64,000 nt of DNA. Source: Clostridia bacterium. GTDB lineage: Bacteria > Bacillota > Clostridia > TANB77 > CAG-508. The stretch spans positions 4,408 through 68,407 of the forward strand of contig JAFWNC010000018.1 of NCBI GenBank assembly GCA_017510525.1, in the 5' to 3' direction. Shown in pieces: positions 655 to 32,788 of the stretch (the first letter of the stretch is position 1; every line of letters begins with the position of its first letter). The notes below the pieces were generated by a model. It was not told where the DNA came from and did not search any database. It saw only the letters and a list, made by a program, of their open reading frames with translations. The position numbers and the translations under genes were made by a program.

Positions 655-754
655 TTGAAATATAGAATTTTGAATTTTAGCAAGGTGTTTTTCGACATTG
701 TCGAAAAAAGCGGAGCGTCCGCAGTCTAAACTGAAAAATTACTATATTTCAATT
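655..754. repeat. Family D structured element, copy D1. Long covarying AT-rich outer stem enclosing the core GCAAGGTGTTTTT-hairpin-AAAAAGCGGAGCGTCCGCAG.
   Basis: Five copies in the window (655, 23738, 26851, 29438, 32683) share the core; outer and inner stems show compensatory changes. D1 sits 48 bp upstream of the gltD-like start and just downstream of the deacetylase stop. Confidence 0.6.
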
Positions 755-770
755 ATATAATATTATATTA

Positions 771-1748
771 TTACTTCATAATATCATAATAGCTCTTAAA
801 CACATACCCCTGATCCTTATAATGCTTAATAATTCTAGGAAGAAGCTCTGCCGTAACCTCCTTATCACCAGCATCATGCATTAAAATAACCAAACTTGTC
901 CTACTACCAGCAGTCTCCATCAAGTAATTCCATTGATCATCACCAGTATTTTTTCCCTCAGCATCACCAGTTAAACAATTCCAATTTGTAAAAGTAATAC
1001 CATTTTGCATAAGAAAGCCCTTAGCCTCCTCCTTAATAGCGGCATAAGGTCCACCAGCAGACCCACCAGGATATCTAAACAAATGAGAATTATAATTAGA
1101 AACACCAATAGCATTCCTTACAGAATTAGTACATTGATTGTATTCATCTAAAATGGCCTGTATAGAAGAATAAATAGAACTATAATCATGACTATAACCA
1201 TGATTAGCAATAAAATGTCCCTCATCATATGCTCTTTTAGTAATCTCTGGATTCAAATCAACCCTTGAACCCAAAACAAAAAAAGTAGCCTTAACATCAT
1301 TTTCTTTTAAAATATCCAAAATCCTAGGTGTAATATTTGTTGAAGGTCCATCATCAAAAGTTAAAAAAATCTGTTTTTCATCAGAAGAATATACACCAAC
1401 GACCTTTTTTTCTATCTCTTCATTATACTTAGGAAGCTCAGAATCTAAAGCCTTTTGAAAATCATGAGTTGGAAAACTCTCTTTTTGAGCCAAAGGCTCT
1501 TCCACTTTCTTCTCTTCCTTTTTTTCATTTTTATCATTATTATTTGAACTATTATTAGCTTTACCAGTAGTTTTAGTAACACCCTCTTGAGCAGTATCAA
1601 CATTTTTATTAATTCTTCCGTAAGATAAAATTACTGTAGCAAAGACTATTGCCACACTAATTAAACCAATAACCAGACAAAAAATAATAGTTCCAATATT
1701 ACTTTTATTACTTTTAACTTCAGTAATATACCCCGGCTCAATCTTCAT
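771..1748 (-). CDS. Polysaccharide deacetylase (NodB homology domain) with N-terminal membrane anchor and Asn/Lys-rich linker
   Basis: ORF track 771..1787. FLTFDDGP...HGYSH...LMHD motifs are typical of NodB/PdaA-type deacetylases. Start moved to MKIEPGY (ATG 1746-1748), which is preceded by AGGGAGAAAGAA. Confidence 0.7.
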   Translation of the reverse strand: MKIEPGYITEVKSNKSNIGTIIFCLVIGLISVAIVFATVILSYGRINKNVDTAQEGVTKTTGKANNSSNNNDKNEKKEEKKVEEPLAQKESFPTHDFQKALDSELPKYNEEIEKKVVGVYSSDEKQIFLTFDDGPSTNITPRILDILKENDVKATFFVLGSRVDLNPEITKRAYDEGHFIANHGYSHDYSSIYSSIQAILDEYNQCTNSVRNAIGVSNYNSHLFRYPGGSAGGPYAAIKEEAKGFLMQNGITFTNWNCLTGDAEGKNTGDDQWNYLMETAGSRTSLVILMHDAGDKEVTAELLPRIIKHYKDQGYVFKSYYDIMK

Positions 1749-1788
1749 TTCTTTCTCCCTTTTTTTTCTATATATAAAACGCCTCATA

Positions 1789-1864
1789 CATCCGTAGCGG
1801 AGAACTAAAGTTCTCCATGTAGGGGCGACTATCAGTCGCCCGCTCTCCTTGACCTACCCTATAC
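1789..1864. repeat. Composite GC-rich hairpin repeat (module A CGTAGCGGAGAACTAAAGTTCTCCAT + module B GTAGGGGCGACtatcaGTCGCCC + tail GCTCTCCTTGACCTACCCTATAC)
   Basis: Direct sequence match to about 15 other intergenic loci in this window; GC-rich inverted repeats in an AT-rich background. Confidence 0.7.
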
Positions 1865-1872
1865 AAAACAAC

Positions 1873-2349
1873 CTATAACTCAATCTCAATCTTTCTCTCG
1901 GTTGAAATATATTGTCTATAACTAACCCCACAAGTATCAAACATCATCTTAGAAGCCTTAACCCCATCAGTATCAGCATATTTATCATCTTTATAAATAA
2001 TCTCTTTAATTCCAGATTGAATAATCGCCTTTGCACACTCATTACAAGGAAATAAACCAACATAAATCTTCGTTCCCTCTAAATTTCCTCTATAATTTAA
2101 AATAGCATTAAGTTCCCCATGACAAACATAAGCATACTTTGTATCTAAAAAATTACCTTCTCTATCCCACTTCATAATATCATCATGAAGCCCACGAGGC
2201 GCACCATTATAACCCATAGACAAAATTCTGTTATCTTTACTAACAATACAAGCACCAACTTGAGTATTAGGATCTTTGCTCCTCTTAGCTGATAAAAGCG
2301 CAACTCCCATAAAATATTCATCCCATGAAATATAATCTTCTCTCTTCAT
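1873..2349 (-). CDS. comEB: dCMP deaminase (ComEB family, cytidine/deoxycytidylate deaminase zinc-binding)
   Basis: HGELNAI...PCNECAKAI zinc-binding motifs. Start set at MKREDYISWDEYFMG (ATG 2347-2349), which has GGAGGTGG 4 nt upstream; the longer ORF-track N-terminus is an upstream extension. Confidence 0.8.
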   Translation of the reverse strand: MKREDYISWDEYFMGVALLSAKRSKDPNTQVGACIVSKDNRILSMGYNGAPRGLHDDIMKWDREGNFLDTKYAYVCHGELNAILNYRGNLEGTKIYVGLFPCNECAKAIIQSGIKEIIYKDDKYADTDGVKASKMMFDTCGVSYRQYISTERKIEIEL

Positions 2350-2439
2350 ATTCCACCTCCTAAACATATACCTACATTTTATCACAACTAACACTAAAGT
2401 CAACAACAATTTTAGGTGTTCAAAGGGGACGGAGAAAAG

Positions 2440-2466
2440 CAAAAAGGGGACGCGCACCCCTTTCAC
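2440..2466 (-). terminator. GC hairpin AAAGGGGACGCGCACCCCTTTC immediately after the spoIIP stop; likely intrinsic terminator
   Basis: Inverted repeat read directly; lies between the convergent-looking ends of spoIIP and the comEB leader. Confidence 0.45.
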
Positions 2467-3572
2467 TTCATAACCTCATCAATAACCTCAGCCAAATACT
2501 TCATACTATTCAAAGCCTCGTCCAAAGTATTTCCAGTAGCACCAACCTCAATAATACAAGACCCTCTAGCCACACTCTGGTTATACCTATATTTTGTAAG
2601 CATAATAGGTTTAAAAAGTCCAGGATACATCTCATTACCCTTCTCCTGGATTTTTATAGCAAGCTTTAAATTCTCATTCCAATTTGGATGATATAAACCA
2701 CCCTCACTACTCCCCATAACAAACATAAGTTGAGCGCAATATTCATCACCAATCTTAACCTTTGGTCCATAAGAACTATCACCCAAAGCATCTCTATGTA
2801 AATCAATAACAAGTTCTGCAGGTGTTGAATTTACAACACCCTGAATAGTTTCCAAAGAACGTGTATATGACCCAGAATAATCAGGATAATCATGATAAGT
2901 CACATCATGAACAACATTATATCCCTTACCAATAAGTAATTCTGTAAGTTCAGTTCCAACCCTAGCAACACTATAATCTAAATCAGTTGTTCTATAATTA
3001 CCAGTTTGTACATAATTAAAACTTTCTGAAGGAGTATAACTCTCACAAGTATGAGTATGGAAAATAACAATATCACTCTTATTATTAAAATAAATATCTG
3101 GAACTAACATATCCTCAGTCAGCTCAAAACTAGTACCATTTCTAATTAGAACACTCCCATATGAATCCGTAAAAGTATCACTCTTATTATTCTCACTAAC
3201 AACCTCAGTTGTAACATTTCTAATGTCTTTTACAACTTCAGCACTTTCCTCTAAACTATCGTCAACCTCATATTCCATATATTCATCAAATATAAAAGAA
3301 TCAACAAAACTAAGTTCTTTGTTAATCACATTTAAATCACTATTATTGTTCTGCTTTTTCTCTCCACTAGTAATACCAATATTTTCATCTATGCACTCTA
3401 TAAAAGTCTTATTATTTAGCGTGTTAAATTTCTTTTTAATACTATTCTCAAATTTAATATTTTTTACTAATTTATACCCTCTAAAAACACTAAAAACAAC
3501 AAGGCAAAAAATAAAAGATTTAAACATAAACTTAACCAAATCATTAAGCCTAATAACCCTAAAATTAATCAT
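2463..3572 (-). CDS. spoIIP: Stage II sporulation protein P (SpoIIP cell-wall hydrolase family) with N-terminal TM segment
   Basis: C-terminal two thirds (HTHTCESY...IDLHRDA...MYPGLFKP...ARGSCIIEVGATGNTLDEA) match the SpoIIP / N-acetylmuramoyl-L-alanine amidase family. AGGAG lies 10 nt upstream of ATG 3570-3572. Confidence 0.75.
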   Translation of the reverse strand: MINFRVIRLNDLVKFMFKSFIFCLVVFSVFRGYKLVKNIKFENSIKKKFNTLNNKTFIECIDENIGITSGEKKQNNNSDLNVINKELSFVDSFIFDEYMEYEVDDSLEESAEVVKDIRNVTTEVVSENNKSDTFTDSYGSVLIRNGTSFELTEDMLVPDIYFNNKSDIVIFHTHTCESYTPSESFNYVQTGNYRTTDLDYSVARVGTELTELLIGKGYNVVHDVTYHDYPDYSGSYTRSLETIQGVVNSTPAELVIDLHRDALGDSSYGPKVKIGDEYCAQLMFVMGSSEGGLYHPNWNENLKLAIKIQEKGNEMYPGLFKPIMLTKYRYNQSVARGSCIIEVGATGNTLDEALNSMKYLAEVIDEVMK

Positions 3573-3626
3573 ATAAATAAAACTCCTACTTTAAATAGTA
3601 TTCAATTTTATTTATATTATGATAAC

Positions 3627-3690
3627 GAAAAATGGTAACGTGAACTTTTGGGGACGCACACCGAAAGTTCACATTACCATTTTTCTTATT
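3627..3690 (-). terminator. Long hairpin AATGGTAACGTGAACTTTT...GAAAGTTCACATTACCATT followed by a T-run, downstream of the MBL hydrolase stop
   Basis: 19-bp arms with T-runs on both sides; contains the GGGGACG motif also seen in other terminator hairpins. Confidence 0.6.
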
Positions 3691-4306
3691 CATACAAATA
3701 TCTTTCATCTTTAATCGCAGTTGGAGCTCCATGTCCAGGATAAATAATAACATCATCAGGTAAAGTCAAAACCTTATTCTTTATAGAATCAATAATTTTT
3801 TCTTCACTACCAGTTGGTAAATCAGTTCTACCACGAGTTCTATAAAAAATAGTATCACCTGAAAATAAAAGCTTATTTTCCTCATTATATAAACATAAAC
3901 ACCCCTCAGTATGTCCAGGAGTTGAAATTACTTTAAACTCTAAATTTCCAACATGAATAACATCTCCATCATCAACCCTAGAATCAGCATCAAATCCTAA
4001 ATCTTCAAACCTTATCAAACTAATTTCGTCATTTTTAAGGCCATCATAATCAGCTCTACTTATAAGAACTTTTCCTCCAAATTTTTCCCTAATCTCAGGA
4101 ACAGCCCCAATATGATCGAAATGGCAATGTGTTAAAAATATATATTTTACACTAACACCCAATAAATTAATCATATCAATAACTTTTTCCGCTTCGCTTC
4201 CCGGATCAATAATCATAGCTTCTTTACTCTCATCATCAGCAATAATATAACAATTAGTAACCAACATACTTTTAGGTATTCTTAACTTTAACTTTTTTAA
4301 AATCAT
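3686..4306 (-). CDS. MBL-fold metallo-hydrolase (hydroxyacylglutathione hydrolase-like)
   Basis: HCHFDH metal-binding motif plus a downstream His/Asp pattern. Start set at MILKKLKL (ATG 4304-4306) with AAAGGGAG upstream. Confidence 0.75.
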   Translation of the reverse strand: MILKKLKLRIPKSMLVTNCYIIADDESKEAMIIDPGSEAEKVIDMINLLGVSVKYIFLTHCHFDHIGAVPEIREKFGGKVLISRADYDGLKNDEISLIRFEDLGFDADSRVDDGDVIHVGNLEFKVISTPGHTEGCLCLYNEENKLLFSGDTIFYRTRGRTDLPTGSEEKIIDSIKNKVLTLPDDVIIYPGHGAPTAIKDERYLYE

Positions 4307-4356
4307 TTGTACTCCCTTTCTTACTACAATAATTTGTAATCCAAGCAATTGTTCTT

Positions 4357-4392
4357 CTATTCGTAGCGGAGATACTCAAAGTTCTCCATAAA
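4357..4392. repeat. Module A hairpin repeat (TTCGTAGCGGAGATACTCAAAGTTCTCCATA)
   Basis: Same family as 1789..1864; stem variant with flanks conserved. Confidence 0.6.
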
Positions 4393-4404
4393 AATATCTA
4401 CTTC

Positions 4405-6598
4405 TTATCTTTTTCTCTTAACTTCATAAACACTAGGAACTCTTCTTAACATATTCATAACCTTATTTAAATCATCCAAATTAACAAGCTCAATATTAAC
4501 ATCAACAATAGCAATTCTCTCTTTTGTTGTTTTAGTATTAAAACCTAAAATATTATATTTAGCTCCAGTAATCTCTTTAATAATATCAGCTAACAATCCA
4601 GTTCTATCATTAGCATAAACCTGAATTCCAACACCAAAATTAGTATTAATAGCATTTTCCCAATGAACATCAATCATTCTGCTTTCTTCTGTAAGTAAAT
4701 CTTTTACATTAACACAATCAGCCCTATGAACTGAAACGCCTCTACCTTTTGTAATATAACCAATAATATTATCACCAGGAAGTGGATTACAACACTTAGA
4801 TAATTTTACTAAACAATTATCAATTCCTTCAACAACAACACCATTTTGAGATGGTTTATGATGAACCTTCTTTTTAGCCAATTCCTGAATTTTAGCGTCA
4901 ATATCTTCCTCATTATGTTCTTTTCTATACTCTTCTAAAAGTCTAGCAACAATCTTACTAGGAGAAATAGCACCAAACCCAACACTTGAATACATATCAT
5001 CTAAAGAATTATACTTATATCTTTCAAGAGCAGAATTAACCCATTCTTGTTTAAATAAATCAGAATGTTTCATTCCTATCTTCTTTATTTCTCTTTCGAC
5101 TGCATCTTTACCTTTTTCAATGTTCTCTTCTCTCTCAGCCTTTTTAAACCACTTCTGAATTCTATTTCTAGCAACAGAACTTTTAACAAATTTAAGCCAA
5201 TCACGGCTAGGTCCATTAGAAGTATCAGAAGTAATAATTTCAACAATATCACCATTTCTTAATCTAGTAACAATCGGAACCATTCTCGTATTTATCTTAA
5301 CTCCAACCATTCTATTTCCAACTTCTTCGTGAATTGCATAAGCCATATCAATTCCAGTACTTCCTCTTGGAAGAACCTTTATATCACCCTTTGGAGTAAA
5401 AACATAAACTTCATCTTCAAACAACTCTTTTTTCAAATTATCAATAAATTCACTTGGACTCTCAGTATCTTTCTGCCACTCCAAAGTTTCTCTAAGCCAT
5501 GAAAGCTTATCCTCTTCAACAACAACAGCCTTTTTTGTTCCCTTATAACTAGCCTCTTTATAAGCCCAATGCGCAGCAATACCATATTCAGCAATTTTAT
5601 GCATATCATATGTACGGATTTGAACTTCAAAAGGAGTAGTTTTATGACCAATTAAAGTTGTATGTATTGATTGATACATATTCTTTTTAGGCATAGCAAT
5701 ATAATCTTTGAATCTTCCAGGCATAGGATTATATTTATCATGAACAATACCCAAAACAGCATAACAATCTCTAACAGAATGAACTAAAATTCTAAGAGCA
5801 AATAAATCATAAATCTCATCTAAAGTTTTATTATCCCTTTTCATCTTTCTATAAATACTATATAAATGTTTTGCCCTACCAGTAACTTCAGCATCAATCT
5901 TAGCTTTCTTAAGCTCTACTCTTATTTCATCCATTACATTTTCAATAAAAGTAAGTCTTTCTTCTCTTTTTTGATCCAACCCTTTAACAATTTCATGATA
6001 TTCCTCAGGATATAGATATTTAAAAGCCAAATCCTCTAGCTCCCACTTCAAAGAATAAATACCAAGTCTATTAGCAAGAGGAGCATATAAATCCATTGTT
6101 TCTTTAGCATTTGCAATTTGTCTTTCTCTAGATAAAAACTTTAAAGTTCTCATATTATGAAGTCTATCTGCAAGTTTAATAAGAATAACCCTAATATCTT
6201 TACCCATAGCAAGAAACATTTTTCTATAATTTTCAATCTGTTGTTCTTCAACAGAAGTATATAACATTTGTCCGAAGTTTTGTAACACCATCAACTAAAA
6301 CAGCAACATCTTCTCCAAATTCTCTAACCAAATCATTTCTAGTAGCATCAGTGTCTTCAACAACGTCATGTAAAAGAGCAGCACAAATAGTCTCAGCATC
6401 TAAACCAAGACCAGACAAAATATAAGCAACATTTAGAGGATGAATAATATATGGCTCACCTGATTTTCTACACTGATCACCATGTTTTTCTACAGCATAA
6501 TCATAAGCCTTACGAATCATTTTAGTATCAATTCGTCTGTTCTTCTCTTTAGCTGTTTTTATAACATCCTCAATTGTAATATTTTCATCAACAACCAT
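4405..6598 (-). CDS. relA: Bifunctional (p)ppGpp synthetase/hydrolase RelA/SpoT (HD + synthetase + TGS + ACT), interrupted by a +1 frameshift at 6272-6274 (extra C before a conserved Gly codon)
   Basis: Two ORFs, 6248..6598 (HD domain N-terminus) and 4405..6294 (remainder). Zero frame reads VTKL-RTNVIYFC-stop; removing the C in CTT C GGA CAA gives VTKLGQMLYTSVEEQQIENYRKMF, which is the conserved RelA sequence. GGAGGAG RBS before ATG 6598. Confidence 0.85.
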
Positions 6599-6608
6599 AT
6601 TCTCCTCC

Positions 6609-8300
6609 CTACATTATTGAACCCATTATATCCTTAATATTAATCTGCACATAATCTCCGCCATTATATGAATTAATCTCTAAATTTCCAGCAATATCAA
6701 CCTTATCACCAATCAAATAATCCTTTGATAACTCACCCATATTAAAGCCAATAGCATTAATAAAAGTATTACCATCTCTTAAACGAAGTTTAAGATGTTT
6801 TCCATCTGTAAGAGCTCTTATAGAATCAATCTTTAAATTCTTATAAACAAAAACTGGAGGTTTATTAGCTTCTCCAAATGGTTCTAACAAGCTTAATTGC
6901 TTAACATTTTCTACCTTAATATCACTTAAACCAATCTGTTTATCAATATTTAAAACAGGAATGATCTTATCAATTTCTTTTGAATCAACATGTTCTTCAA
7001 ATTTTTTCCTGAACTCGTCAATATTTTCTTCTTTCATTGTAAGGCCAATAGCCATTTCATGGCCACCAAACTTATCTAAATATTCACTCAATTCAGAAAG
7101 AGCCTCATGTAAATCAATTCCTGGAATACTTCTACCAGAACCTTTACCAATTCCATTCTCTAAACAAAGCAAAATAGAAGGTTTAAAATATAAATCTGTA
7201 ATTTTAGAAGAAACTATTCCAATAACTCCATGATGCCATTTTTCATTAGAAAGAATAATAGATTTCTTGTTTTTAACATCACTATTTTCAATCATTTCAA
7301 TAGCTTCATTGTAAATATTTTTTTCAACTTCTTGTCTTTCTTTATTATATTTATTCAAATTTTCAGTTATTCTATTAGCCTCAACAATATTGTCAGTCAA
7401 AAATAACTCTACAGCTTCTTTTTCAAATCCCATTCTTCCACAAGCATTAATTCTAGGAGCCATTCCAAAAGAAACTGTACTTGAATTAATCTCTTTATAC
7501 CCAGAAGCTTTCAGTAAAGAAAACATACCAGGATTTTTAGTTACATTAAGAAGCTTCAATCCTAATTTTGCAATTACTCTATTTTCGCCAGTTAAAGGAA
7601 CAATATCAGAAATCGTTCCAACACAAACAATATCTAAATACTTTAAAATTTCATTTTCATCAATATTACGTCTTTGAGCCAGCCCTTGAGAAACCTTAAA
7701 AACAACACCAACACCAGCTAAATTTTTATTAGGATAAACATTATCTTTTCTTTTTGCATCAACAACTGCAACAGCATTTGGTAATTTTTCCATTGGCTCA
7801 TGATGATCAGTAACAATAACTTCTAATCCTAAAGAATTAGCATAATCAATCTCATCAATAGATGCAATTCCGCAATCAACAGTAATAATTAATGAATAAC
7901 CTTGCTCTTTTATTTTGTCAATAGCATCTTTGTTTAAACCATATCCCTCACTTAACCTATTAGGAATATAATAATCAGCAATCAACCCACAATCTTTTAA
8001 AAACTTTTTCAAAACAGTAATACTAGTAATTCCATCAACATCATAATCACCATAAATAATTACTTTTTCTTGATTATCAATTGCCTTTTCTATCCTATCA
8101 ACAGCTTCTTTCATATCAGGCAATAAAAAAGGATCGTGAAAATCATTTCTTGTAGGATTCAAGAACATTTCAATTTCACTATCATCTTCTATTCCTCTAT
8201 TCAACATTACTGTAGCAAGTAATTCAGAAATATTAAATTTTTCAGAAATCTCTTTAACTTTTGTAATACTTACTTTATTAAAATTCCATTTTTTATGCAT
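6609..8300 (-). CDS. recJ: Single-stranded-DNA-specific exonuclease RecJ (DHH/DHHA1)
   Basis: DHH motifs (YGDYDVDGITS, DHH); 565-aa product. Start set at MHKKWNF (ATG 8298-8300) with AGGAGAGG upstream. Confidence 0.85.
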   Translation of the reverse strand: MHKKWNFNKVSITKVKEISEKFNISELLATVMLNRGIEDDSEIEMFLNPTRNDFHDPFLLPDMKEAVDRIEKAIDNQEKVIIYGDYDVDGITSITVLKKFLKDCGLIADYYIPNRLSEGYGLNKDAIDKIKEQGYSLIITVDCGIASIDEIDYANSLGLEVIVTDHHEPMEKLPNAVAVVDAKRKDNVYPNKNLAGVGVVFKVSQGLAQRRNIDENEILKYLDIVCVGTISDIVPLTGENRVIAKLGLKLLNVTKNPGMFSLLKASGYKEINSSTVSFGMAPRINACGRMGFEKEAVELFLTDNIVEANRITENLNKYNKERQEVEKNIYNEAIEMIENSDVKNKKSIILSNEKWHHGVIGIVSSKITDLYFKPSILLCLENGIGKGSGRSIPGIDLHEALSELSEYLDKFGGHEMAIGLTMKEENIDEFRKKFEEHVDSKEIDKIIPVLNIDKQIGLSDIKVENVKQLSLLEPFGEANKPPVFVYKNLKIDSIRALTDGKHLKLRLRDGNTFINAIGFNMGELSKDYLIGDKVDIAGNLEINSYNGGDYVQINIKDIMGSIM

Positions 8301-8415
8301 TATTCCTCTCCTAAATTTCAACAATTTGAATCATTATATACTATCCAGAAAAAAAATTAAATAGATTTTCGCTATTTTTCTAAAAAATTCTTCATATTTT
8401 TCAAATAAATAAAAA

Positions 8416-8442
8416 AAGGACGACCAATGGTCGCCCCTACAA
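8416..8442. repeat. Module B hairpin (GGACGACCAATGGTCGCCCCTAC), reverse-loop orientation, downstream of pilin-like paralog 1
   Basis: Near-palindromic GC hairpin; the homologous copy downstream of paralog 2 is at 15063-15085. Confidence 0.6.
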
Positions 8443-8457
8443 GAATCATATTAAATT

Positions 8458-21426: not shown

Positions 21427-21430
21427 TCAA

Positions 21431-21465: not shown

Positions 21466-21468
21466 AAA

Positions 21469-23292: not shown

Positions 23293-23334
23293 AAAAACAC
23301 CCAGAAAAGATTTCCCTTTTCCAGGTGATATTAA

Positions 23335-23688
23335 AATAAGTAAGTCTATAAGCCGGGTTCTGTCTTAAATAGCCATTTATCTAGGATATATATTACTATA
23401 TACCTCAAGCCACTCAAAAACATTCAAAGAAGTGACGAGCAGTCATACTCCCCTTTGTGTTTAAGGTGTTGCTCCAGGTGGGGTTTACACGAACAAGGAA
23501 TGTCACCATTCCTCCGGTGAGCTCTTACCTCACCTTTTCACCCTTACCAAAACGGCGGTTATTTTCTGTTGCACTTTCCTTAAGGTCACCCTCACTGGAC
23601 GTTATCCAGCACCATTGCTCTATGGAGCCCGGACTTTCCTCCCGCGAACCCTTTCGGAATTCGCCAGCGACTATTCGGCTTACTCTAA
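23335..23688 (-). ncRNA. rnpB: RNase P RNA, bacterial type A architecture
   Basis: The minus strand contains GGAGGAAAGUCCGGGCUCCAUAGAGCA, AGUGCAACAGAAAAUAACCGCCG, GGUAAGGGUGAAAAGGUGAGGUAAGAGCUCACC, GUAAACCCCACCUGGAGCAA and ACAGAACCCGGCUUA, in the order and spacing of E. coli M1 RNA. P1 pairs AGAGUAAGCC with GACUUACUU. Ends are within about 5 nt. Confidence 0.85.
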
Positions 23689-23737
23689 TATCTATTTTAA
23701 GAGCATTTTTCAAATTTGTCAAGCAAATACATATTCT

Positions 23738-23844
23738 AATCCAATATATACCAACTTTTTAGTGTGTCAAGGTGTTTTTCGACGTAGTCGAAAAATAGCA
23801 GAGCGTCCGCAGACTAAACTAAAAAGTTGGTATATATCGGATTG
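23738..23844. repeat. Family D structured element, copy D2. Outer stem AATCCAATATATACCAACTTTTTAGT / ACTAAAAAGTTGGTATATATCGGATTG covaries relative to the other copies.
   Basis: Core CAAGGTGTTTTTCGACGTAGTCGAAAAATAGCAGAGCGTCCGCAG. Located 50 nt upstream of the rnpB 5' end. Confidence 0.6.
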
Positions 23845-23909
23845 ATTTTTTCTCTTCTTAAATCAATACAAAAGAGGCTTGAAAAATTTTCAAGCCCCGC
23901 CACTACTTA

Positions 23910-24173: not shown

Positions 24174-24305
24174 TTCTTGCCTCCTAAATTTTTATTTTTT
24201 GTTTTCAACATTACCTTTTATATAATATTTTCAGAATAATGTCTAGTAGTTTTTGGTAATTTATGGAAGTTTCGTTCGTCTATAAAATACAATATTCGAC
24301 AGTAT

Positions 24306-25070: not shown

Positions 25071-25147
25071 ATTTCCTGTCTCCTTTAATTTCACAATATA
25101 TTAATATTATAATAACAACTCACCAAAAAATCAACCATAATTTTCAC

Positions 25148-25200
25148 AAACAAAAAGAACCCTTACCAAATGTTATAATCTTGAAAACATTTGATAAGGC
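25148..25200 (-). terminator. Hairpin CCTTACCAAATGTT...AACATTTGATAAGG followed by a T-rich run on the minus strand, downstream of pilin-like paralog 3
   Basis: Read directly. Confidence 0.55.
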
Positions 25201-25239
25201 TCCCTATTTGTTATTATGTCATTCATCCCCACTCCTATA

Positions 25240-25300
25240 GACATGGAAACCCGCCCTTACAGGCCGTAGCGGAGCACTACAGTGCTCCCTTCTCCTTGCC
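25240..25300. repeat. Half module C (CATGGAAACCCGCCC), module A (CGTAGCGGAGCACTACAGTGCTCC) and CTCCTTG tail
   Basis: Same family. Confidence 0.6.
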
Positions 25301-25305
25301 TAACT

Positions 25306-26625
25306 TTATTGTAACTCGTATACTCCATCTTCATCCGTACCAGCTAGACTAACTCCAGATTTTAAGCAAACTAGCGGACGGAACCCATATTTACTGGATT
25401 TAAAGGTGCCAACTGCCACAGTACCTCCAAAATGTGCACTTATCAAGCTGCTCGTAAAAACATTAGAATTTGAAGCAAGCCACATAGCATCCGAGACTCT
25501 TTCAGAGTTATCTATAAAATATAAATTATCATCTTCTGTACTAAACCCTGAAACACGTGCCTCAAAAGAACCTGAACCTCTTGATGTAAAATATCCGTAA
25601 CTATTGTTTTCATTATAATTCATTTTTACTTCTGTATCAAAATTTGTATCGTTTGCATGTTTTGCATTATATGAGGCTGAAAATTGCTCTAGTGTTGGTC
25701 CTCCTACTACATAGTTGATTTTATTAGTATATGTACTAGGTATATAATCTGTTGTCCATTTACTTGTCCATGCTGTTGTATCTAACATATATGCTACAGC
25801 TTTTATATGATTATATCCTTTTTGAGTATCACTTAAATCCGTTCTATTTGCCCATTTGTTATAATTTGAACTTAATAACGAATTTCCTGATATATCTATT
25901 GCCCCATTATAATCTGCTAATAAATCATTATTCCAATACGCTTTATAACTTCCATCAGCTGTTAGACTGTGTTTCGTCGTTCTGCCTTCCACTTTTGGTT
26001 CACTTTGTGGACACATACTGTTTGGTATATAATCTGCTGCAATCAAATACACATTACTTTCATCGTTTAAAAATATTCTAAAATCATTTGTAGTATCACT
26101 ATCTCCGTTTATATCTACACCTATATCTACGTAATCTCCATAATTATCTGTTGTTATTGTTACTGTCGATGAAGGTGATGGAGATGGTGATACATCTGGA
26201 GTCGTTGTTTCTCCTCCTGTAACTTCACTATTTCCATCATTCCATAATATATGTCCATTAGGTTCAATCATTCCTGAAGTTCTTATTCCGTCTTTTTCTG
26301 CTGTTATTGTCATTTTTTCTGAATCTGCCTCTATTTCTATTCCGTTTATCGTTTTTCCGTCTATTTGTGTCGCTACATACTCTCCTGCACTTCCTGTTAC
26401 CTCTCCGCTATCCTTAGTATGATATTCTGCCACTAAATCAGCTGCCTCTAAATCAACCTCTTCCTGAATCTTCTTAATATTTGTCGTATCCTTTGCCTCT
26501 CTTGACCTTGATAAAATACCATTATCGCCAACAACCATTGCAATAGTGACACCAGCAAGTATCAATAAAACAATAATTGTGATAACAAGAGCTATTAAAG
26601 TAATACCCTTTTGTTTTTTCAACAT
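25306..26625 (-). CDS. Pilin-like N-terminus surface protein, paralog 3 (no LRR; Pro/Ser/Thr linker and divergent C-terminal domain)
   Basis: N-terminal 50 aa (KGITLIALVITIIVLLILAGVTIAMVVGDNGILSRSREAKDTTNIKKIQEE) nearly identical to 8458..9972 and 15103..16797. Linker PSPSPSSTVTITT. Confidence 0.5.
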   Translation of the reverse strand: MLKKQKGITLIALVITIIVLLILAGVTIAMVVGDNGILSRSREAKDTTNIKKIQEEVDLEAADLVAEYHTKDSGEVTGSAGEYVATQIDGKTINGIEIEADSEKMTITAEKDGIRTSGMIEPNGHILWNDGNSEVTGGETTTPDVSPSPSPSSTVTITTDNYGDYVDIGVDINGDSDTTNDFRIFLNDESNVYLIAADYIPNSMCPQSEPKVEGRTTKHSLTADGSYKAYWNNDLLADYNGAIDISGNSLLSSNYNKWANRTDLSDTQKGYNHIKAVAYMLDTTAWTSKWTTDYIPSTYTNKINYVVGGPTLEQFSASYNAKHANDTNFDTEVKMNYNENNSYGYFTSRGSGSFEARVSGFSTEDDNLYFIDNSERVSDAMWLASNSNVFTSSLISAHFGGTVAVGTFKSSKYGFRPLVCLKSGVSLAGTDEDGVYELQ

Positions 26626-26684
26626 CTTTTAATCCTCCTTTAATTTTATATTTATATTATTTTTTATAATATAACCAAATCCTA

Positions 26685-26800
26685 CCCAGCTTTGCGGGTC
26701 TCGGGAAGCTACTAGCTTCCCCTACATCTTTTGCAATATGTATTCGTAGCGGAGCTACTTAAGTGCTCCATACCTCCAACGGCATACCCTATACAATAAA
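26685..26800. repeat. Composite repeat: hairpin GGGAAGCTACTAGCTTCCC flanked by CCTACCC/CCCCTAC, module A (TTCGTAGCGGAGCTACTTAAGTGCTCCAT) and tail (CCTCCAACGGCATACCCTATAC)
   Basis: Same family; first element of the 835-bp intergenic region upstream of paralog 3. Confidence 0.6.
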
Positions 26801-26850
26801 TTCTCATATTTGAAATTATATATTATTTTTCTTACATGCCCCATATTGTA

Positions 26851-26960
26851 AAATTGAAATATAGAATTTTGAAGCGTGGCAAGGTGTTTTTACCACCGCA
26901 GGTGGTGAAAATAGCAGAGCGTCCGCAGCCTAAGCTGAGAAATTGCTATATTTCAATTTG
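26851..26960. repeat. Family D structured element, copy D3. Inner hairpin ACCACCGCAGGTGGT replaces the CGACATTGTCG of D1.
   Basis: Core GCAAGGTGTTTTT...AAAATAGCAGAGCGTCCGCAG. Outer arms AAATTGAAATATAGAATTTTGAAGCGTGGC / GCCTAAGCTGAGAAATTGCTATATTTCAATTTG. Confidence 0.6.
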
Positions 26961-27097
26961 TAATAAAACAAATATAGAAAAATAATATATAATTTTAAAT
27001 CAACCTACACGCCAAAAAAGCCCATGGCTTTTTACTACTACACAGCATAAAAAACCATAGACTCTCCCTTTATGTTAAATAATTTTTTTTAATTATC

Positions 27098-27120
27098 CCG
27101 ATATATATATATATATATAT
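27098..27120. repeat. (TA)11 dinucleotide microsatellite
   Basis: gATATATATATATATATATATAcg read directly, in the long intergenic region upstream of pilin-like paralog 3. Confidence 0.8.
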
Positions 27121-27247
27121 ACGCTCTCAAGGCTTTCAAGCTTTTCATCTTTTAAAAATTCTCCTCTTTTGTTTCTCTCACACATAAATTTTACACATAA
27201 TAAAAACAAAAGTCAATACAAATAAAACTTTTTTGTCAATGTATAGA

Positions 27248-27392
27248 CTTGAGGAACGTCCGGGTCTGCTGAAAAAGTGCCTTTTCTGTTTATGGGGAAC
27301 TCTAGTTCTCCGCTACAACTAGCATTAATTCGTAGCGGACAACTAAAGTTGTCCATAAAATTATTGCCTTTTCAGCGGTCCCGGAAGTCCAT
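27248..27392. repeat. Nested inverted-repeat composite: outer arms GGAACGTCCGGGTCTGCTGAAAAAG / CTTTTCAGCGGTCCCGGAAGTCC enclose two module A copies in inverted orientation
   Basis: GGGGAACTCTAGTTCTCCGCTACAA (reverse) and TTCGTAGCGGACAACTAAAGTTGTCCAT (forward). Predicted stem-loop/cruciform of about 140 nt. Confidence 0.6.
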
Positions 27393-27461
27393 TAAAAGTC
27401 TAACTCCTTTGGTCGAGAGGGATGGTTCCTTTTGGCAGATTTCATCCCTTAATCATCATTC

Positions 27462-28331
27462 TCATTTTCTCTCTTCCAATGCTTTCACTATGTCCTTAGA
27501 ACATGTAAGTATCGGTGCACCTTCTTTAATTAATTTATTAGTTCCAATTGATGTATAACTTGTTAAATTTCCAGGAACAACAAAAACATCTCTTCCTTGT
27601 TCTAAAGCCAAATCTGCAGTAATTAAACTTCCACTTCTAGCTCCAGCTTCAACAACAATAGTAATATCAGATAATCCACTTATAATTCTATTTCTCATAG
27701 GAAAAAAAGTTTTATCTGGCCTTACGCCTGGACAATACTCAGAAACAACCAAACCACCATTTTTTATTATATTATTATAAATCCCCTCATTTTCATAAGG
27801 ATAAACAAAATCAATTCCAGAACCCAAAACAGCAATAGTCTTACAATTAGTTTTAATAGCACCTAAATGAGAATAAGTATCAATTCCCCTAGCCATACCA
27901 CTTACAATAACAACATCCTTTTTAGATATATTATACGCTAATCTATATGAAACATCTTTCCCATACTCAGAACAATTTCTACATCCTACAATTGAAACAA
28001 TTTTATCACTATTTAACAAATCAATATTCCCTCTAGTATATAAAACAACAGGAAAGCCATAAATATTTTTGAGCCTTTCAGGATATCTCTTATCCAAAAA
28101 ACAAATAACCTCAATGCCCTTCTCTTTAATAACCTTAAGAATCTCATCAACAGATAACCTTTTACCCTTATCCAATACTTCATTTCTAATACACTCCGGA
28201 AAACCTTTTAAATCCTTCTCATTCGAAAAATAAATCCTATCTGGACCACCAAACCTCTCCAGTAAAAACATCTTATCACTAGGCGTTAAACGCAAAAAAG
28301 AGAGCCAAACCCAGAACCTTAAATCACACAT
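27462..28331 (-). CDS. dprA: DNA-processing protein DprA (Smf)
   Basis: Rossmann-like DprA core (IVSGMARGIDTYSHLGAI...AVLGSGIDFVYP...GGLVVSEY...RNRIISGLS...VVEAGARSGSLITA). GGAGG RBS before ATG 28329-28331. Confidence 0.85.
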   Translation of the reverse strand: MCDLRFWVWLSFLRLTPSDKMFLLERFGGPDRIYFSNEKDLKGFPECIRNEVLDKGKRLSVDEILKVIKEKGIEVICFLDKRYPERLKNIYGFPVVLYTRGNIDLLNSDKIVSIVGCRNCSEYGKDVSYRLAYNISKKDVVIVSGMARGIDTYSHLGAIKTNCKTIAVLGSGIDFVYPYENEGIYNNIIKNGGLVVSEYCPGVRPDKTFFPMRNRIISGLSDITIVVEAGARSGSLITADLALEQGRDVFVVPGNLTSYTSIGTNKLIKEGAPILTCSKDIVKALEERK

Positions 28332-28569
28332 AATTTAAACCTCCAAATAATAGCCCCCATATTTTATTTTTAAAAAATAAATACTAAACAAAAATTATAT
28401 ATTAATTTTCTGAAATCCCCGCGCAGCGACCAAACGAGATTCGTCAGAATCGAGTGCTACCTCCGCAGCCCTATCAGATAAAATACTTAAATTTTCAATT
28501 TATTGAAAATTTGTAGAATAAGGGCTGTGACAGCAAGGGGTAAAGATAATTCATATATAATTTTTAATA

Positions 28570-29412
28570 CTATAATTTATTTTTTGCCGCCTTAACCACA
28601 TTATTCATAAGCATAGCAATCGTCATAGGCCCAACCCCACCTGGAACAGGTGAAATAAAAGACGCCTTTTTACTTACATTTTCAAAATCAACATCGCCCT
28701 TAATTTTACCATCTTCAGTTCTATTAATACCTACATCCACAACTACAACACCATCTTTAACCATATCAGCCTTCAAGAATTCAGTTTTACCAATAGCCGA
28801 AACAATAATATCAGCCTGCTTTGTAATTTCTGAAATATTCTTAGTTCTCGAATGACAAACAGTTACAGTAGCATTTTTATTTAATAAACACTGTACCATA
28901 GGTTTACCTACAATATTACTTCTACCTAAAACAACAGCATTTTTACCTTCTAATTCAACATTATACTCTTCTAAAAGCTTAATAACGCCAAGAGGAGTAC
29001 AAGAAATAAAAGAATCTTGTCCAATACTTAATTTACCTACATTTACTGGATTAAACCCATCAACATCTTTCATTGGATCAATCTTTTGAAAAGCCTCATT
29101 AATATCCAAATTGTCAGGAATTGGACTTTGAAGCAATATTCCATGAATATCTTTTTTATTATTTAAAGAATCAATTAAATCAAGTAATTTCTCTTGAGTA
29201 ATATTATCATCTAATAAATATTCTTCAAAATCTATTCCACAATCCTCACAAGCCTTACTCTTATTTCTTACATAAATCTTAGAAGCAGGATTATCTCCAA
29301 CCATTATAACAGCAAGCTTTGGAAGAATTCCTTGTTTTTTTAGTTCTTCAACTTCTACTTTCAAGCCTTCTCTAATCTTTTTTGCAGTTTGTTTTCCATC
29401 TAAAATCTCCAT
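28570..29412 (-). CDS. folD: Bifunctional methylenetetrahydrofolate dehydrogenase/methenyl-THF cyclohydrolase
   Basis: 280 aa. Motifs YVRNKSKACEDCGI...GILLQSPIP...GFNPVNVGKL...PCTPLG...VVLGRSNIVGKPM...PGGVGPMT. Confidence 0.9.
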   Translation of the reverse strand: MEILDGKQTAKKIREGLKVEVEELKKQGILPKLAVIMVGDNPASKIYVRNKSKACEDCGIDFEEYLLDDNITQEKLLDLIDSLNNKKDIHGILLQSPIPDNLDINEAFQKIDPMKDVDGFNPVNVGKLSIGQDSFISCTPLGVIKLLEEYNVELEGKNAVVLGRSNIVGKPMVQCLLNKNATVTVCHSRTKNISEITKQADIIVSAIGKTEFLKADMVKDGVVVVDVGINRTEDGKIKGDVDFENVSKKASFISPVPGGVGPMTIAMLMNNVVKAAKNKL

Positions 29413-29437
29413 ATAACATTCTCCTTCGTTTAATTAT

Positions 29438-29550
29438 AAATATGAAATAAGATTTTTGAGACGTAACGAGGTGTTTCTCAATTTTCGTAAGAAAATTGTG
29501 GAATAGCAGAGCGTCCGAAGTTTAAGTCAAAAAAAACTTATTTCATATTT
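29438..29550. repeat. Family D structured element, copy D4; most divergent copy (longer inner hairpin CTCAATTTTCGTAAGAAAATTGTGG)
   Basis: Core CGAGGTGTTT...AATAGCAGAGCGTCCGAAG. Outer arms AAATATGAAATAAGATTTTTGAGACG / TTTAAGTCAAAAAAAACTTATTTCATATTT. Lies 26 bp upstream of the folD start, just after the uppP stop. Confidence 0.55.
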
Positions 29551-29553
29551 ATT

Positions 29554-30381
29554 TTACCTAAAAATACAAAGTCCTAGGATAAATAATCCAAGAATAACCC
29601 TATAAATTGCAAAAACTTTAAAACTACCCTTTTTTAGATAATTCATCAAAAACTTAACAACAAACAATCCAACAACAAAACTAGCAATAACCCCAATCCA
29701 AAAAGAAGCTGAAGTCAAAGCAAATTCTTTTATATCAACTAAAACAGCAGCCGCTACAATAGGTGTAGAAAGTAAAAATGAAAACTTAGCAGCACTCTCT
29801 CTATCAATCTTATACCCTCTAGCAACAGTCATAGTAATACCAGAACGAGAAACTCCTGGAAAAGCTGCAGCTATTGCCTGAGAAATACCAATTACCATAG
29901 CCTGTTTAAATGAAATCTTTTCATATTTAATCTTATTTTTTAACCTTTTATCAACAACAGCCAAAACAATACCCATAACAATTAAAGCAATAGCAATTAA
30001 AATCATTTCTAATTTGAAATTATCACCAATTATCTTATCAGAAATTTTATCTAAAACTAAAGCTAAAACACCAGCAGGAATAGTTGCAATTACTAAATAC
30101 CAAAACATTCTTCCATCAACAGAATCCTGTTTTTTTACAAGCTTATTAAAACCAGCTTTAATAAGCTTTATCCAATCTTTTAAAAAGAATAACCCAATAG
30201 CAAGCAAAGTTCCAAAATGAAGAGCAACATCAAAAGCCCCATCAAAATCAGCTCTAAAACTACAACTATCAGTCCATCCAAAAATCCAAGGAATAACATT
30301 TAAATGAGCAGAACTAGAAACAGGTAAAAGCTCTGTTAAACCTTGAACAATTCCTAAAATCAAAGCTTGATATATTAACAT
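29554..30381 (-). CDS. uppP: Undecaprenyl-diphosphatase
   Basis: 275 aa, 8 TM helices; GLTELLPVSSSAHL and PGVSRSGITM motifs. Confidence 0.9.
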   Translation of the reverse strand: MLIYQALILGIVQGLTELLPVSSSAHLNVIPWIFGWTDSCSFRADFDGAFDVALHFGTLLAIGLFFLKDWIKLIKAGFNKLVKKQDSVDGRMFWYLVIATIPAGVLALVLDKISDKIIGDNFKLEMILIAIALIVMGIVLAVVDKRLKNKIKYEKISFKQAMVIGISQAIAAAFPGVSRSGITMTVARGYKIDRESAAKFSFLLSTPIVAAAVLVDIKEFALTSASFWIGVIASFVVGLFVVKFLMNYLKKGSFKVFAIYRVILGLFILGLCIFR

Positions 30382-30420
30382 TTTTATTTCTCTCTTTCTA
30401 ATCTATAATTCATAATAATT

Positions 30421-31296
30421 CTACATCTCTTTTAATATATGTCCAATTGTCTCCTTAATAAACTCCGCAGAAGTAATAGGCGCAACCTTACCAGGAAGTG
30501 ATAAAGCCCAAATAAGCTTCAACCCTCTTCTTTTAGCAGAATTTCTATCAACACCACCAGGATTAGAAGACAAATCAATAATTGTACAATCTTTTTTTAC
30601 ATACCCCAATCTCTCATCATCTAAAATTGTGAAAGGAATAGTATTAATAATAATATCAAATTTTCCAAGTTCTTGATTAACTTCACTTAAATGAATTGGT
30701 TTATAACCATAAGCCTTAATCCAAGCAATATCAGAATCCTTTCTAGCCTCGCAAGTAACATTAGCTCCAATACCGTCAAGCATCTTAGCTAGAACCTTTC
30801 CAACTCTTCCAAATCCCATAATTAAAATATTGCTACCATGAAGAGTTCTCTGAGTTTCTTCCATTAAAATTTGAATAGTACCCTCAGCAGTTGAAATAGT
30901 ATTTAAAACAACTAATTCTTCTCTTTTTAATAGATCAATATATTTAACTTTGGCCTCATCCAATTTTCTTGAAATATCATCAGTAATTTTACCAGCTAAG
31001 AAAACCTTTTCTCTATTTTTCATAGCTGAAACTAATTCATCAATCGTAATTCTATTCTCAGAAAAAGGAGTACTAACATTAACCCTATCACTAGTCATAG
31101 GAACAGGTCCAAGAATAATATCTCCTCTATCAATCAATTCATCAATAGAAGAACACCTATGTAAATTCTCACTCTCTCCAAGTCCTTCAGCATTTTCCAA
31201 ACCATAATAATAAACTAAAAAATCATCTTTAACTAATAATTCTATTAGCTTAACAATCCTCAAATCTCCACCAATTACAGATATCTTTCTATACAT
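30421..31296 (-). CDS. dpaA: Dipicolinate synthase subunit A-like (DpaA / SpoVFA family; NAD(P)-binding)
   Basis: MYRKISVIGGDLR...ILIMGFGRVGKVLAKML...DIIINTIPF architecture matches the SpoVFA family. No dpaB (flavoprotein subunit) adjacent. Confidence 0.65.
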   Translation of the reverse strand: MYRKISVIGGDLRIVKLIELLVKDDFLVYYYGLENAEGLGESENLHRCSSIDELIDRGDIILGPVPMTSDRVNVSTPFSENRITIDELVSAMKNREKVFLAGKITDDISRKLDEAKVKYIDLLKREELVVLNTISTAEGTIQILMEETQRTLHGSNILIMGFGRVGKVLAKMLDGIGANVTCEARKDSDIAWIKAYGYKPIHLSEVNQELGKFDIIINTIPFTILDDERLGYVKKDCTIIDLSSNPGGVDRNSAKRRGLKLIWALSLPGKVAPITSAEFIKETIGHILKEM

Positions 31297-31313
31297 ACTC
31301 TTTTCAATCCTTT

Positions 31314-32588
31314 CTAATATTGGTTTAATTCGACATCCTTTTCTTTCTCTTCTTGATTTTTCAATCTTTTCTCTTCTTCTTGTTTGAAAATATCATCAAC
31401 TTTTTTATTTGCCCTATTTTTTATTTCATTAACATTTAAATCTTCTATTAAAGTATATGTTTCTTCTAAATATTTTTGAACCTCTTCATCTTCTTTTTTT
31501 ATTTTTTTAACATCTTTAGGCTCCATCTTAACAGAAACAGTTAAATAACTACGAATATTTTTAAATACTTCATCTTTAGAAATGATATCTAAATAAACAT
31601 CATCTAACTCAATAGCTTTATTTGCAAAATTAATAGCCTTATCTTTTTCACTTTTAATAGCATATATCTTAGCTAATTGATAATATGCCTTAGCCTCAAG
31701 TTCTTCAGACATTAAACATTCTTTAAAATATCTTTCAGCAGAATCAATATCTTTCTGAATCAAAGCAATTTGACCTAAATTATAATGAGCAGAATACATT
31801 TTATGATTAATTTCAGCAGCCTTCTCATAGCACTCTTTCGCACTTGGAAAATCATTCAACCTAGTATAAACAATTCCAAGACTATAATATAACTCAAAAT
31901 CCAATGGTCTATATTTAAGAGCATCTGTATAAACATTAACAGCCTCTTTAAATCTCTCTTGCTTACAAAGTAAATCACCAAGTAAATTAGAAGCTTCATA
32001 AAAATCAGGCTTATTTCTTAGCAAATTGTTAAGCATAGTAATAGCTTCATTAGGCTTATCAAGCTCTTGAAGAAGTTCAGCAATTCTATAATAAGAATTA
32101 TAATCTTGCTTATTTAAATCAACAGCCATAACATATTCATCAATAGCCTTTCTTCTTCCACCCTCTTTTTCATAAATCTTAGCAAGCAATAAATGTCCAT
32201 AATACGAATCATATCTATCAACTAAATTAAGAAGAATTTTCTTAGCGCCTTTATTATTTCCAATAAACATCAAAACTCTTGCTAAAGCAATAGAAACAGC
32301 CTCAGAAAGATTATATCCAGTTATTTCAATTAAAATAACAACTAAAGGAATAGCTACAGAAAAGAAATACATAAGAAATTTAATCATTCCATTAGAAAAA
32401 TCTTTAAAAATAATCTCTCCAAAATTAAGAGCAATACCTACTCCCTGTAATATTATAAGAAAAACATAGTTACTATCATTTTTCTTAATAAGCTTAGCAA
32501 AAATCAATATAAACAAAGAAAATGCCAATAAATTAAAAATCATCTTCTCAATCAACATAATCCCCAAAATCTCCTCTAAATTAAACAT
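31314..32588 (-). CDS. Membrane-anchored tetratricopeptide-repeat protein
   Basis: Several N-terminal TM helices, then 8 or more TPR-like 34-aa units (AxxYYxLGxIYxxxxxxxxAIxxYxKAL). Confidence 0.6.
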   Translation of the reverse strand: MFNLEEILGIMLIEKMIFNLLAFSLFILIFAKLIKKNDSNYVFLIILQGVGIALNFGEIIFKDFSNGMIKFLMYFFSVAIPLVVILIEITGYNLSEAVSIALARVLMFIGNNKGAKKILLNLVDRYDSYYGHLLLAKIYEKEGGRRKAIDEYVMAVDLNKQDYNSYYRIAELLQELDKPNEAITMLNNLLRNKPDFYEASNLLGDLLCKQERFKEAVNVYTDALKYRPLDFELYYSLGIVYTRLNDFPSAKECYEKAAEINHKMYSAHYNLGQIALIQKDIDSAERYFKECLMSEELEAKAYYQLAKIYAIKSEKDKAINFANKAIELDDVYLDIISKDEVFKNIRSYLTVSVKMEPKDVKKIKKEDEEVQKYLEETYTLIEDLNVNEIKNRANKKVDDIFKQEEEKRLKNQEEKEKDVELNQY

Positions 32589-32682
32589 CCTTTTTTATCT
32601 ACATTTGAGATTATATCACATCAAAAATTTAAGCACAAGGTTTTATTAAATAAAATAATTGATTATTTTAAAAAAATAAAAA

Positions 32683-32788
32683 GGATTTGAAATATAGAAT
32701 TTTGAAGCGTGGCAAGGTGTTTTTCGACATAGTCGAAAAATAGCGGAGCGTCCGCAGCCAAAGCTGAAAAATTACTATATTCAAATCC
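32683..32788. repeat. Family D structured element, copy D5 (near-identical to D1 and D3 in its 5' arm and core)
   Basis: GGATTTGAAATATAGAATTTTGAAGCGTGGCAAGGTGTTTTTCGACATAGTCGAAAAATAGCGGAGCGTCCGCAGCCAAAGCTGAAAAATTACTATATTCAAATCC. Confidence 0.6.

Follow-up and report, generated by a model that had tools for sequence, protein, structure and literature searches.

The ERIC sequences of enterobacteria, also called intergenic repeat units (IRU), are imperfect palindromes of ~127 bp that lie in transcribed intergenic regions, at low to moderate copy number and in either orientation. Their sequence is unusually highly conserved between species, and their presence or absence varies at orthologous sites. 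A further group of short repeats, the REPINs, is mobile DNA, and compensatory changes across their hairpins are common (PMC3116915). Here we describe elements comparable to these, found in a 64,000-nucleotide stretch (hereafter the window: assembly GCA_017510525.1, contig JAFWNC010000018.1, positions 4,408 to 68,407 of the forward strand) from the metagenome-assembled genome (MAG) of a spore-forming, uncultured member of the Clostridia with ~30% GC, derived from a ruminant gut data set. The window carries five copies of the element, D1 to D5, for which an initial annotation had proposed either a structured non-coding RNA (ncRNA) or a MITE (miniature inverted-repeat transposable element). The copies do form a family, and this was the correct pair of options. 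Our reading, to which we give a probability of about 60%, is that D1-D5 are non-autonomous, palindromic, hairpin-forming DNA repeats of a MITE/REPIN/ERIC-like kind, and not a free-standing RNA gene.

All five copies called by the annotation are present in the sequence, and the core is, as it had stated, on the plus strand in 5/5. The limits of the hairpins were set from sequence reading and RNAfold (whole elements and the outer repeat of D3 are given without a strand), and the cores were scored with a covariance model of 21 family members. D1 (651..756) takes up the greater part of a 145-bp spacer that separates a deacetylase gene (stop at 771) from a gltD-like gene (start at 625), and its core, i.e., the stems P2 and P3 and the GAGCGTCCG block, is at 668..737 (+, 65.2 bits). 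D2 (23737..23844), which has its own arms of 23-26 bp, is flanked by the terminator of spoVS (23898-23874, -) and the promoter of rnpB (23722-23694, -), with its core at 23755..23825 (+, 70.4 bits). The inner hairpin element of D3 (26844..26965; core 26867..26941, +, 76.6 bits) is enclosed by an outer 25-nt inverted repeat that is 96% complementary (26808..27000, with the two halves at 26808-26832 and 26976-27000). D4 (29436..29552) has the uppP stop codon (29554) on one side and, on the other, the folD start (29412) with its ribosome-binding site, and its core (29454..29533, +, 63.3 bits) is the most diverged of the copies. Lastly, D5 (32682..32789; core 32700..32770, +, 77.8 bits) is placed between the terminator of a 3D-domain gene (32828-32801, -) and the promoter of a TPR gene.

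When the 64 kb window was searched with this model, with filters off, exactly D1-D5 were recovered at 63-78 bits, and the next match reached 14.6 bits (E 0.73). The motif GAGCGTCCGMAG has 5 plus-strand matches in the window against 0.49 expected from shuffles, and 0/100 shuffles reached 6; a sixth match, with 2 mismatches, is unrelated. Compared with their own shuffles, the five copies gave folding z values from -4.7 to -10; each fold has a long stem on the outside and, within it, a junction that bears a variable hairpin. A search for more diverged copies, by nhmmer and by the covariance model, covered the window plus ~330 kb of related loci and found none beyond the exact-pattern copies and D6, a copy in a close relative described below.

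The layout of the family is, in order, inverted arm, short stem P2, GGUGUUU, hairpin P3, AAAUAGC, the RGAGCGUCCGMAG block, the other strand of P2, and the second arm. The core is asymmetric, conserved and 60-80 nt long, being made of P2, the variable hairpin P3 and the invariant GAGCGTCCG, and the long inverted arms lie outside it. The invariant block of the core is ATAGCRGAGCGTCCGMAG, and the sequence of P3 is free. The annotation had described a 21-nt invariant core: this holds for GAGCGTCCG and the adjacent bases and fails beyond them; D6 has the core variant GAGCATCCG, and D4 deviates from the consensus that it quoted (CGAGGTGTTTC... and CCGAAG). A further small stem, P4 (GCRGA/UCCGM), is on the gene-sense strand a 5-bp stem, GCGGACGCTCCGC, followed by UAUUUUU (TATTTTT in DNA). 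It was flagged as terminator-like in D5 (32743..32755, -), D3 (26914-26926, -) and D2 (23798-23810, -), and was recognised by eye in D1 (710-722, -) and D4 (29506-29518, -).

A coding core, with R as the third codon position of GCR GAG CGT CCG, was considered and rejected: there is no start codon, and the length of P3 is out of frame. Indeed, P3 ranges from 18 to 31 nt in increments that are not multiples of 3, which rules out an open reading frame (ORF) through the core. In one copy (L012, 4409-4470, -), the core is separated from the 3' arm by an extra insert of ~55 nt that forms a hairpin itself and contains a AATGCAGTGA repeat. The idea that this copy was a cargo carrier without a 3' arm was dropped, as the arm was found ~55-60 nt farther, past the inserted hairpin, and no ORF is there.

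The arms have the properties of DNA palindromes. Over ~650 aligned arm positions, ~9 transition mismatches would be G·U on the plus strand and ~11 would be G·U on the minus strand; arms that are nearly pure Watson-Crick, with no G·U bias to either strand, indicate DNA-type palindromes. Palindromy extends out to 60-90 nt from the core in several copies, and the arms are copy-specific past ~14-20 nt. In the MAG JAFUGK01, three copies (L010, L017, and L019) have practically identical cores, even in P3, and unrelated arms, each of which is a perfect palindrome of 25-37 bp. Unrelated perfect arms around identical cores cannot arise by gradual RNA covariation, and they must thus be made or maintained by a DNA mechanism. 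At inverted repeats, template switching by polymerase is known to homogenise and lengthen arms and to invert the spacer between them (PMC8604942; also PMC7202029). Common arms are found in the window lineage only, in D1, D3, D5 and the D6 of the relative, which means that in this lineage the copying extended to the entire hairpin. A compensated pair distinguishes D3 from D6 (TTGAAAT/ATTTCAA vs TTAAAAT/ATTTTAA).

The element is gained or lost as a unit between close relatives, and it can land in operon junctions and at gene 3' ends. We compared synteny among related genomes by anchoring on FolD and SpoVS. Contigs of the same species (L026/L027) carry D2-D5. In the closest relative (L033, FolD 96% identical; hereafter the 96% relative), D3 and D4 are present, D5 is absent, and the extra copy D6 lies between folD and dprA, while no copy occurs across the syntenic uppP-folD-dprA-ymdB-spoVS block of the 90% and 87% relatives and of ten genus-level relatives. 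The uppP-folD spacer measures 141 bp with D4 versus 9-16 bp in relatives without the element. At another locus (L004), a copy stands in place of the last gltX codons, and the site is empty in three relatives. At the D5 site, the extra DNA is ~140 nt and exceeds the length of the hairpin.

Insertion into a pre-existing palindrome was also considered and rejected, no such palindrome being present at the empty D5, D4 and gltX sites. In the window, the folD-dprA spacer contains (28392-28563) a 20-nt inverted repeat (AAATTATATATTAATTTTCT) that is related to the outer repeat of D3 and has a different middle; this middle is unique and more GC-rich (GGGCTGCGGAGGTAGCACTCG...GCGCGGGG), with only GGCTGCGGA in common with the element. 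In place of this repeat, the 96% relative has the intact D3-like copy D6. Contigs of the window species and of the 96% relative (L027, L028/L029, L033, and L034) end at or near copies of the element, which thus appears to break short-read assemblies.

The core is also invertible in place between the arms, and its deletion leaves a plain hairpin. Three states of the pynp-cdaA spacer are found in relatives with 95-100% identity: the core is antisense in 6/6 contigs of one protein variant (L014, L025, L056-061 group); the core and the proximal arms are flipped in 4/4 contigs of a 99% variant (L024, L068-071 group); and the core is deleted between two TG dinucleotides in 6/6 contigs of a 95% variant (L062-067), where the left half and an 11-bp hairpin remain. 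Orientation is constant within each protein-variant group, so the flip looks like a rare heritable event, with no visible fast switching. The occurrence of both orientations at one locus, between flanks that are otherwise near-identical, could suggest an inverton-like switch, in which the arms would be recombination sites and the flip of the core would toggle an orientation-dependent signal, such as the terminator made of P4 and the U-tract, between two genes; coherently, the terminator-like feature exists in one orientation only. We find this explanation highly improbable. Two orientations do exist, but each is fixed per lineage (6/6 and 4/4 contigs), and the window copies keep one orientation across all assemblies of the species and of the 96% relative. 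Moreover, no invertase gene lies nearby, the core contains no promoter, the invertible segment is only ~80-110 bp, and the arms are not common to the loci, contrary to what a single recombinase would require.

Structure statistics were computed on a register-fixed alignment with the loops filled with N. Considering all stem cells, 87.7% are paired, versus 75% in shuffles and 31-48% when the partner strand is slid. P3 is 96% paired and has double changes at 8/13 pairs; P2 is 77% paired, with double changes at 5/7 pairs. The annotation was right about compensated variation in the inner hairpin and in the stems: compensatory changes are seen in P2, P3 and the arms. A hairpin inside the invariant core, which it had called pseudoknot-like, finds no such backing: P4 has no pairs with double changes and 18 unpaired cells on the plus strand, where 11/21 copies have an A·C mismatch and none has G·U, while on the minus strand it is G-C or G·U in 21/21. 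P2 has 3 G·U versus 6 A·C, and P3 on the plus strand has 27 G·U, 20 of which are one invariant pair, versus 1 A·C. The strand signals from P2, P3 and P4 are in mutual conflict. Covariation had also been used as an argument for RNA over MITE, and this argument does not stand, because compensated arms are also usual in hairpin-forming mobile DNA. Although P2, P3 and the arms do covary, this does not discriminate in favour of RNA.

The independent plus-strand ncRNA, antisense to its neighbours, that the annotation favoured might be freed by trimming of its long double-stranded arms, as a P2-closed RNA of ~65-70 nt exposing GAGCGUCCG. It would fit the plus-strand folds, which are usually more stable than the minus-strand ones, the G·U pairs that P3 forms on that strand, the double compensatory changes of P2 and P3, which are well above the shuffled and slid controls, and the conservation of the core. 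Conversely, P4 is mismatched on the plus strand and lacks covariation, the arms have no G·U enrichment, and the element is flipped and lost between close lineages. No conserved plus-strand promoter or terminator was found in the copies, only inconsistent -10-like hexamers in the arms, and the flanks and distal arms are copy-specific. The family has no relative in Rfam either: at the Rfam 15 gathering thresholds, the whole window gave only RNase P (23333-23686, -) and a tRNA-Thr, and the D3 region, with E up to 10, gave only two chance matches of 14-15 bits. In addition, insertion at an operon junction would lay an antisense gene across essential operons. We consider an RNA gene of this kind very unlikely. 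It is the least supported option when set beside a cis RNA role in sense-strand transcripts or the recognition of the core by a trans factor, both of which are plausible.

The reading of D1-D5 as mobile palindromic DNA can be placed in its transcriptional context. The distances of 25-225 bp to the downstream genes are as the annotation gave them, and the copies are just as near to the end of the upstream gene, whether its stop codon or its terminator. D1 and D4 occupy tight operon spacers, and any termination at P4 must therefore be leaky. D2 and D5 are found past the terminator of the upstream gene and ahead of the rnpB and TPR-gene promoters, respectively (the latter read by eye), and D2 alone has a good outward minus-strand promoter match. 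The description of the copies as antisense to the flanking genes is correct; more simply, what is transcribed, as part of the neighbouring mRNAs, would be the core's reverse complement. Where the flanking genes are co-directional, the core is on the opposite strand at 14 independent loci and on their own strand at 3 (binomial p ~0.013). In other genomes, the flanking genes are unrelated housekeeping genes (such as eno, gltX, metG, pheS, ychF, and pynp). The GC skew of the window on the plus strand is very strong and uniform, from -0.2 to -0.47, and nearly all genes are on the minus strand; given the absence of a skew switch, neither the origin nor the terminus of replication lies within it. 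As GC skew tracks gene orientation at every locus, a replication-strand bias and a transcription-strand bias are inseparable.

We then considered the conservation of orthologous copies. At the eno-rmlD site, compared among three species, four-fold eno sites differ by 17-30%, and the element by ~3%, apart from a length change in P3; the spacer beside the element differs by ~35-40% (the figures for element and spacer were read by eye). Orthologous copies thus evolve five- to eight-fold more slowly than synonymous sites, which suggests that something recognises the core. The eno-rmlD copies lie in the eno 3' untranslated region (UTR), upstream of a conserved canonical terminator, and are therefore transcribed as the reverse complement of the core as first described.

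This observation bears on a second RNA explanation, in which the element would be a host-maintained, cis-acting RNA on the gene-sense (-) strand, i.e., a structured 3'-UTR or operon-spacer module, with a long hairpin and a three-way junction, that would keep the upstream mRNA stable, determine read-through or bind a protein, and that would have spread by duplication. It overlaps with the mobile-repeat reading, and the sole difference is the claim of a selected host function. The ~3% divergence against a neutral 17-30%, at an orthologous 3'-UTR site upstream of a real terminator, speaks in its favour, as do the prevailing orientation, which puts the same strand in the mRNA, and the pairing of P4 in 21/21 copies on the minus strand, followed by UAUUUUU. 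In Clostridium operons, the stability of mRNA is under the control of 3' stem-loops (PMC8219983). The explanation fits less well with D2 and D5, which lie between a terminator and a promoter and are thus probably poorly transcribed, with the viability of the flipped and core-deleted pynp-cdaA lineages, with neighbouring genes that are unrelated to each other, and with the invariant G·U at the base of P3, which becomes an A·C mismatch on the minus strand. We hold a selected host function of this type to be unlikely.

In the mobile-repeat reading, DNA processes acting on inverted repeats, such as template switching or arm-to-arm correction, would have produced the perfectly paired arms, made them longer and inverted the core, and none of this would derive from selection on an RNA helix. 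A trans-acting factor would recognise the conserved core, probably as folded single-stranded DNA (ssDNA) or RNA, and this would account for a constant core combined with freely varying arms. In its commonest orientation, the element would be transcribed together with the upstream gene as the reverse complement of the core, giving a transcript with a long 3' hairpin, a three-way junction, and a weak terminator-like hairpin followed by a U-tract. The element would then modestly alter 3'-end stability or read-through, and it would encode no RNA gene of its own.

Several observations weigh against this reading. The conservation at eno-rmlD points to purifying selection beyond selfish spread, and the slow divergence at this site is, above all else, what the idea of a purely selfish, decaying repeat fails to explain. 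The 14:3 orientation bias needs an oriented mechanism or selection, and the G·U pairs of P3 weakly favour folding of the plus strand. The other genomes contain 1-3 exact-pattern copies each, which is low for an active mobile element, and neither an autonomous partner nor a transposase is present among the neighbouring genes examined in the window and the loci. No clean target-site duplication was found in the filled/empty pairs of D5, D4 and L004, where the flanks are AT-rich and somewhat diverged. Lastly, the reading does not account for the origin of the copy-specific arms, and their match to the flank of the target, taken as inverted copies of it, did not reach significance (p 0.1-0.7).

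Purifying selection, identical cores with unrelated perfect arms in one genome, and orientation bias are all left without an explanation by the more mundane reading, and they suggest a bolder one. The core could be a module read by a dedicated factor as folded ssDNA or RNA: either the recognition site of a hairpin-dependent mobilisation system of unknown type, which would make or capture perfect arms of its own at every new location, or a new class of structured RNA retained by the host on a mobile palindrome. We regard this as decidedly unlikely. If it were true that the core is the handle of a mobilising enzyme or of an RNA-binding factor, it would represent a new hairpin-based mechanism of mobility or regulation.

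To assess the distribution of the family, we used one exact-pattern scan across 185,579 species genomes. It returned 14 true matches, all in gut Clostridia MAGs (25-31% GC; human, mouse, and roe deer), and 8 high-GC chance matches, while the metagenomes of the Joint Genome Institute gave 3 family matches. Overall, about a dozen uncultured gut Clostridia genomes share the architecture. BLAST against phages and plasmids and scans of viral contigs gave no family match, with one high-GC chance match only; a sequence-based literature search returned only unrelated primer matches; and Clostridia are not mentioned in a 2024 review on the MITEs of prokaryotes. The family is undescribed, and it is so far known only from a clade of low-GC uncultured gut Clostridia. 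It thus adds a new repeat family to poorly known uncultured gut Clostridia from ruminant, mouse and human samples, and one that alters operon junctions and gene 3' ends (uppP-folD, gltX). The mobile-repeat reading would also make it a clean case in which covarying stems come from the dynamics of DNA palindromes and not from selection on RNA, a caution for ncRNA discovery in AT-rich genomes.

Other features of the window were also noted. A second repeat family, with eight copies on one strand, is marked by a TTCGTAGCGG block at plus coordinates 4360, 19428, 23263, 26743, 27329, 33642, 42383, and 49979, and it is probably the first family of the initial annotation. On the gene-sense (-) strand it reads ATGGAG..CT....AG..CTCCGCTACGAAT, i.e., a short hairpin followed by GCTACGAAT. 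The copies checked against the ORF list lie directly upstream of a minus-strand gene (6/6), and this family has no Rfam match at gathering thresholds. An ORF of 439 aa (25306-26625) has no Pfam or NCBIfam match and is absent in relatives, where ymdB directly follows dprA; the inserted block that contains it also carries D3, two copies of the TTCGTAGCGG family and a (TA)n run. Microsatellites of (TA)n type are found at 27102-27121 and 33699-33714, and the first varies in length between two related assemblies. The acetate kinase gene appears as two overlapping ORFs (35462-36004 and 35934-36653), adjoining a 397-aa ORF (36670-37863). A contig of the same species has an intact acetate kinase as the equivalent neighbour and is annotated with the same split, so that a frameshift or pseudogene, and not a one-off assembly error, is indicated.

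Compared with known systems, the element is like MITEs in being small and non-coding, in having inverted ends and several copies, and in the polymorphism of its insertions. It also resembles the Correia/NEMIS, RUP and bcr1 MITEs in being located near gene ends and co-transcribed into hairpins. Classical MITEs, however, have family-wide terminal inverted repeats that match a parent insertion sequence (IS) and a target-site duplication of fixed length, and neither was found here; all of the at least 22 matches are short hairpins, and none is IS-sized. For the IS200/IS605-derived elements known as PATE, which have subterminal hairpins at the two ends, no terminal inverted repeats and a strand bias of insertion, with tnpA in the genome, the 14:3 strand bias and the lack of a duplication would fit, but the long inverted arms do not. 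An intrinsic terminator or a SPRITE-like terminator repeat has a GC-rich stem ahead of a U-tract on the transcribed strand; the 5-bp stem of P4 with its UAUUUUU recalls this layout on the gene-sense strand. Integron attC sites, which have RYYYAAC ... GTTRRRY core sites at the hairpin base in a cassette array beside intI, are no better match: P2 in the window is GCGTGGC/GCCTAAGC and similar, the neighbours are housekeeping genes with no cassette array, and an attC-like P2 (GTTTAAC/GTTAAAC) is found in one clade only. Resemblances to Ter, parS, Chi, the CodY box and ssoA fit neither the sequence nor the distribution of the family.

The REPINs share with the element a non-coding, extragenic, hairpin-forming and mobile nature, a size of ~70-110 nt, compensatory changes, and a folding proposed to occur in ssDNA or mRNA (PMC3116915). 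They are REP doublets mobilised by RAYT transposases and are found in tens to hundreds of copies beside a RAYT gene, whereas here we counted 1-5 copies per sampled region or genome; no RAYT gene or other transposase is present among the neighbouring genes examined, and the GTAG or CGTC tag is absent from the element. REPINs conserve their arms (the REPs, two palindromes in inverted orientation) and leave the spacer free, while in our element conservation falls on an asymmetric centre and it is the arms that vary freely. The ERIC sequences belong to another phylum and are unrelated in sequence (compared by description), and their centre is a conserved inverted repeat instead of an asymmetric three-way-junction core. 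Quasipalindrome template switching matches the perfect arms, the compensated difference between the D3 and D6 arms and the flipped core; it is, however, a mutational process and not a family of elements, and while it explains the upkeep of the arms and the inversion of the core, it leaves the conserved core and the spread to new sites unexplained. A conserved asymmetric centre combined with free arms is an unusual layout among palindromic mobile elements.

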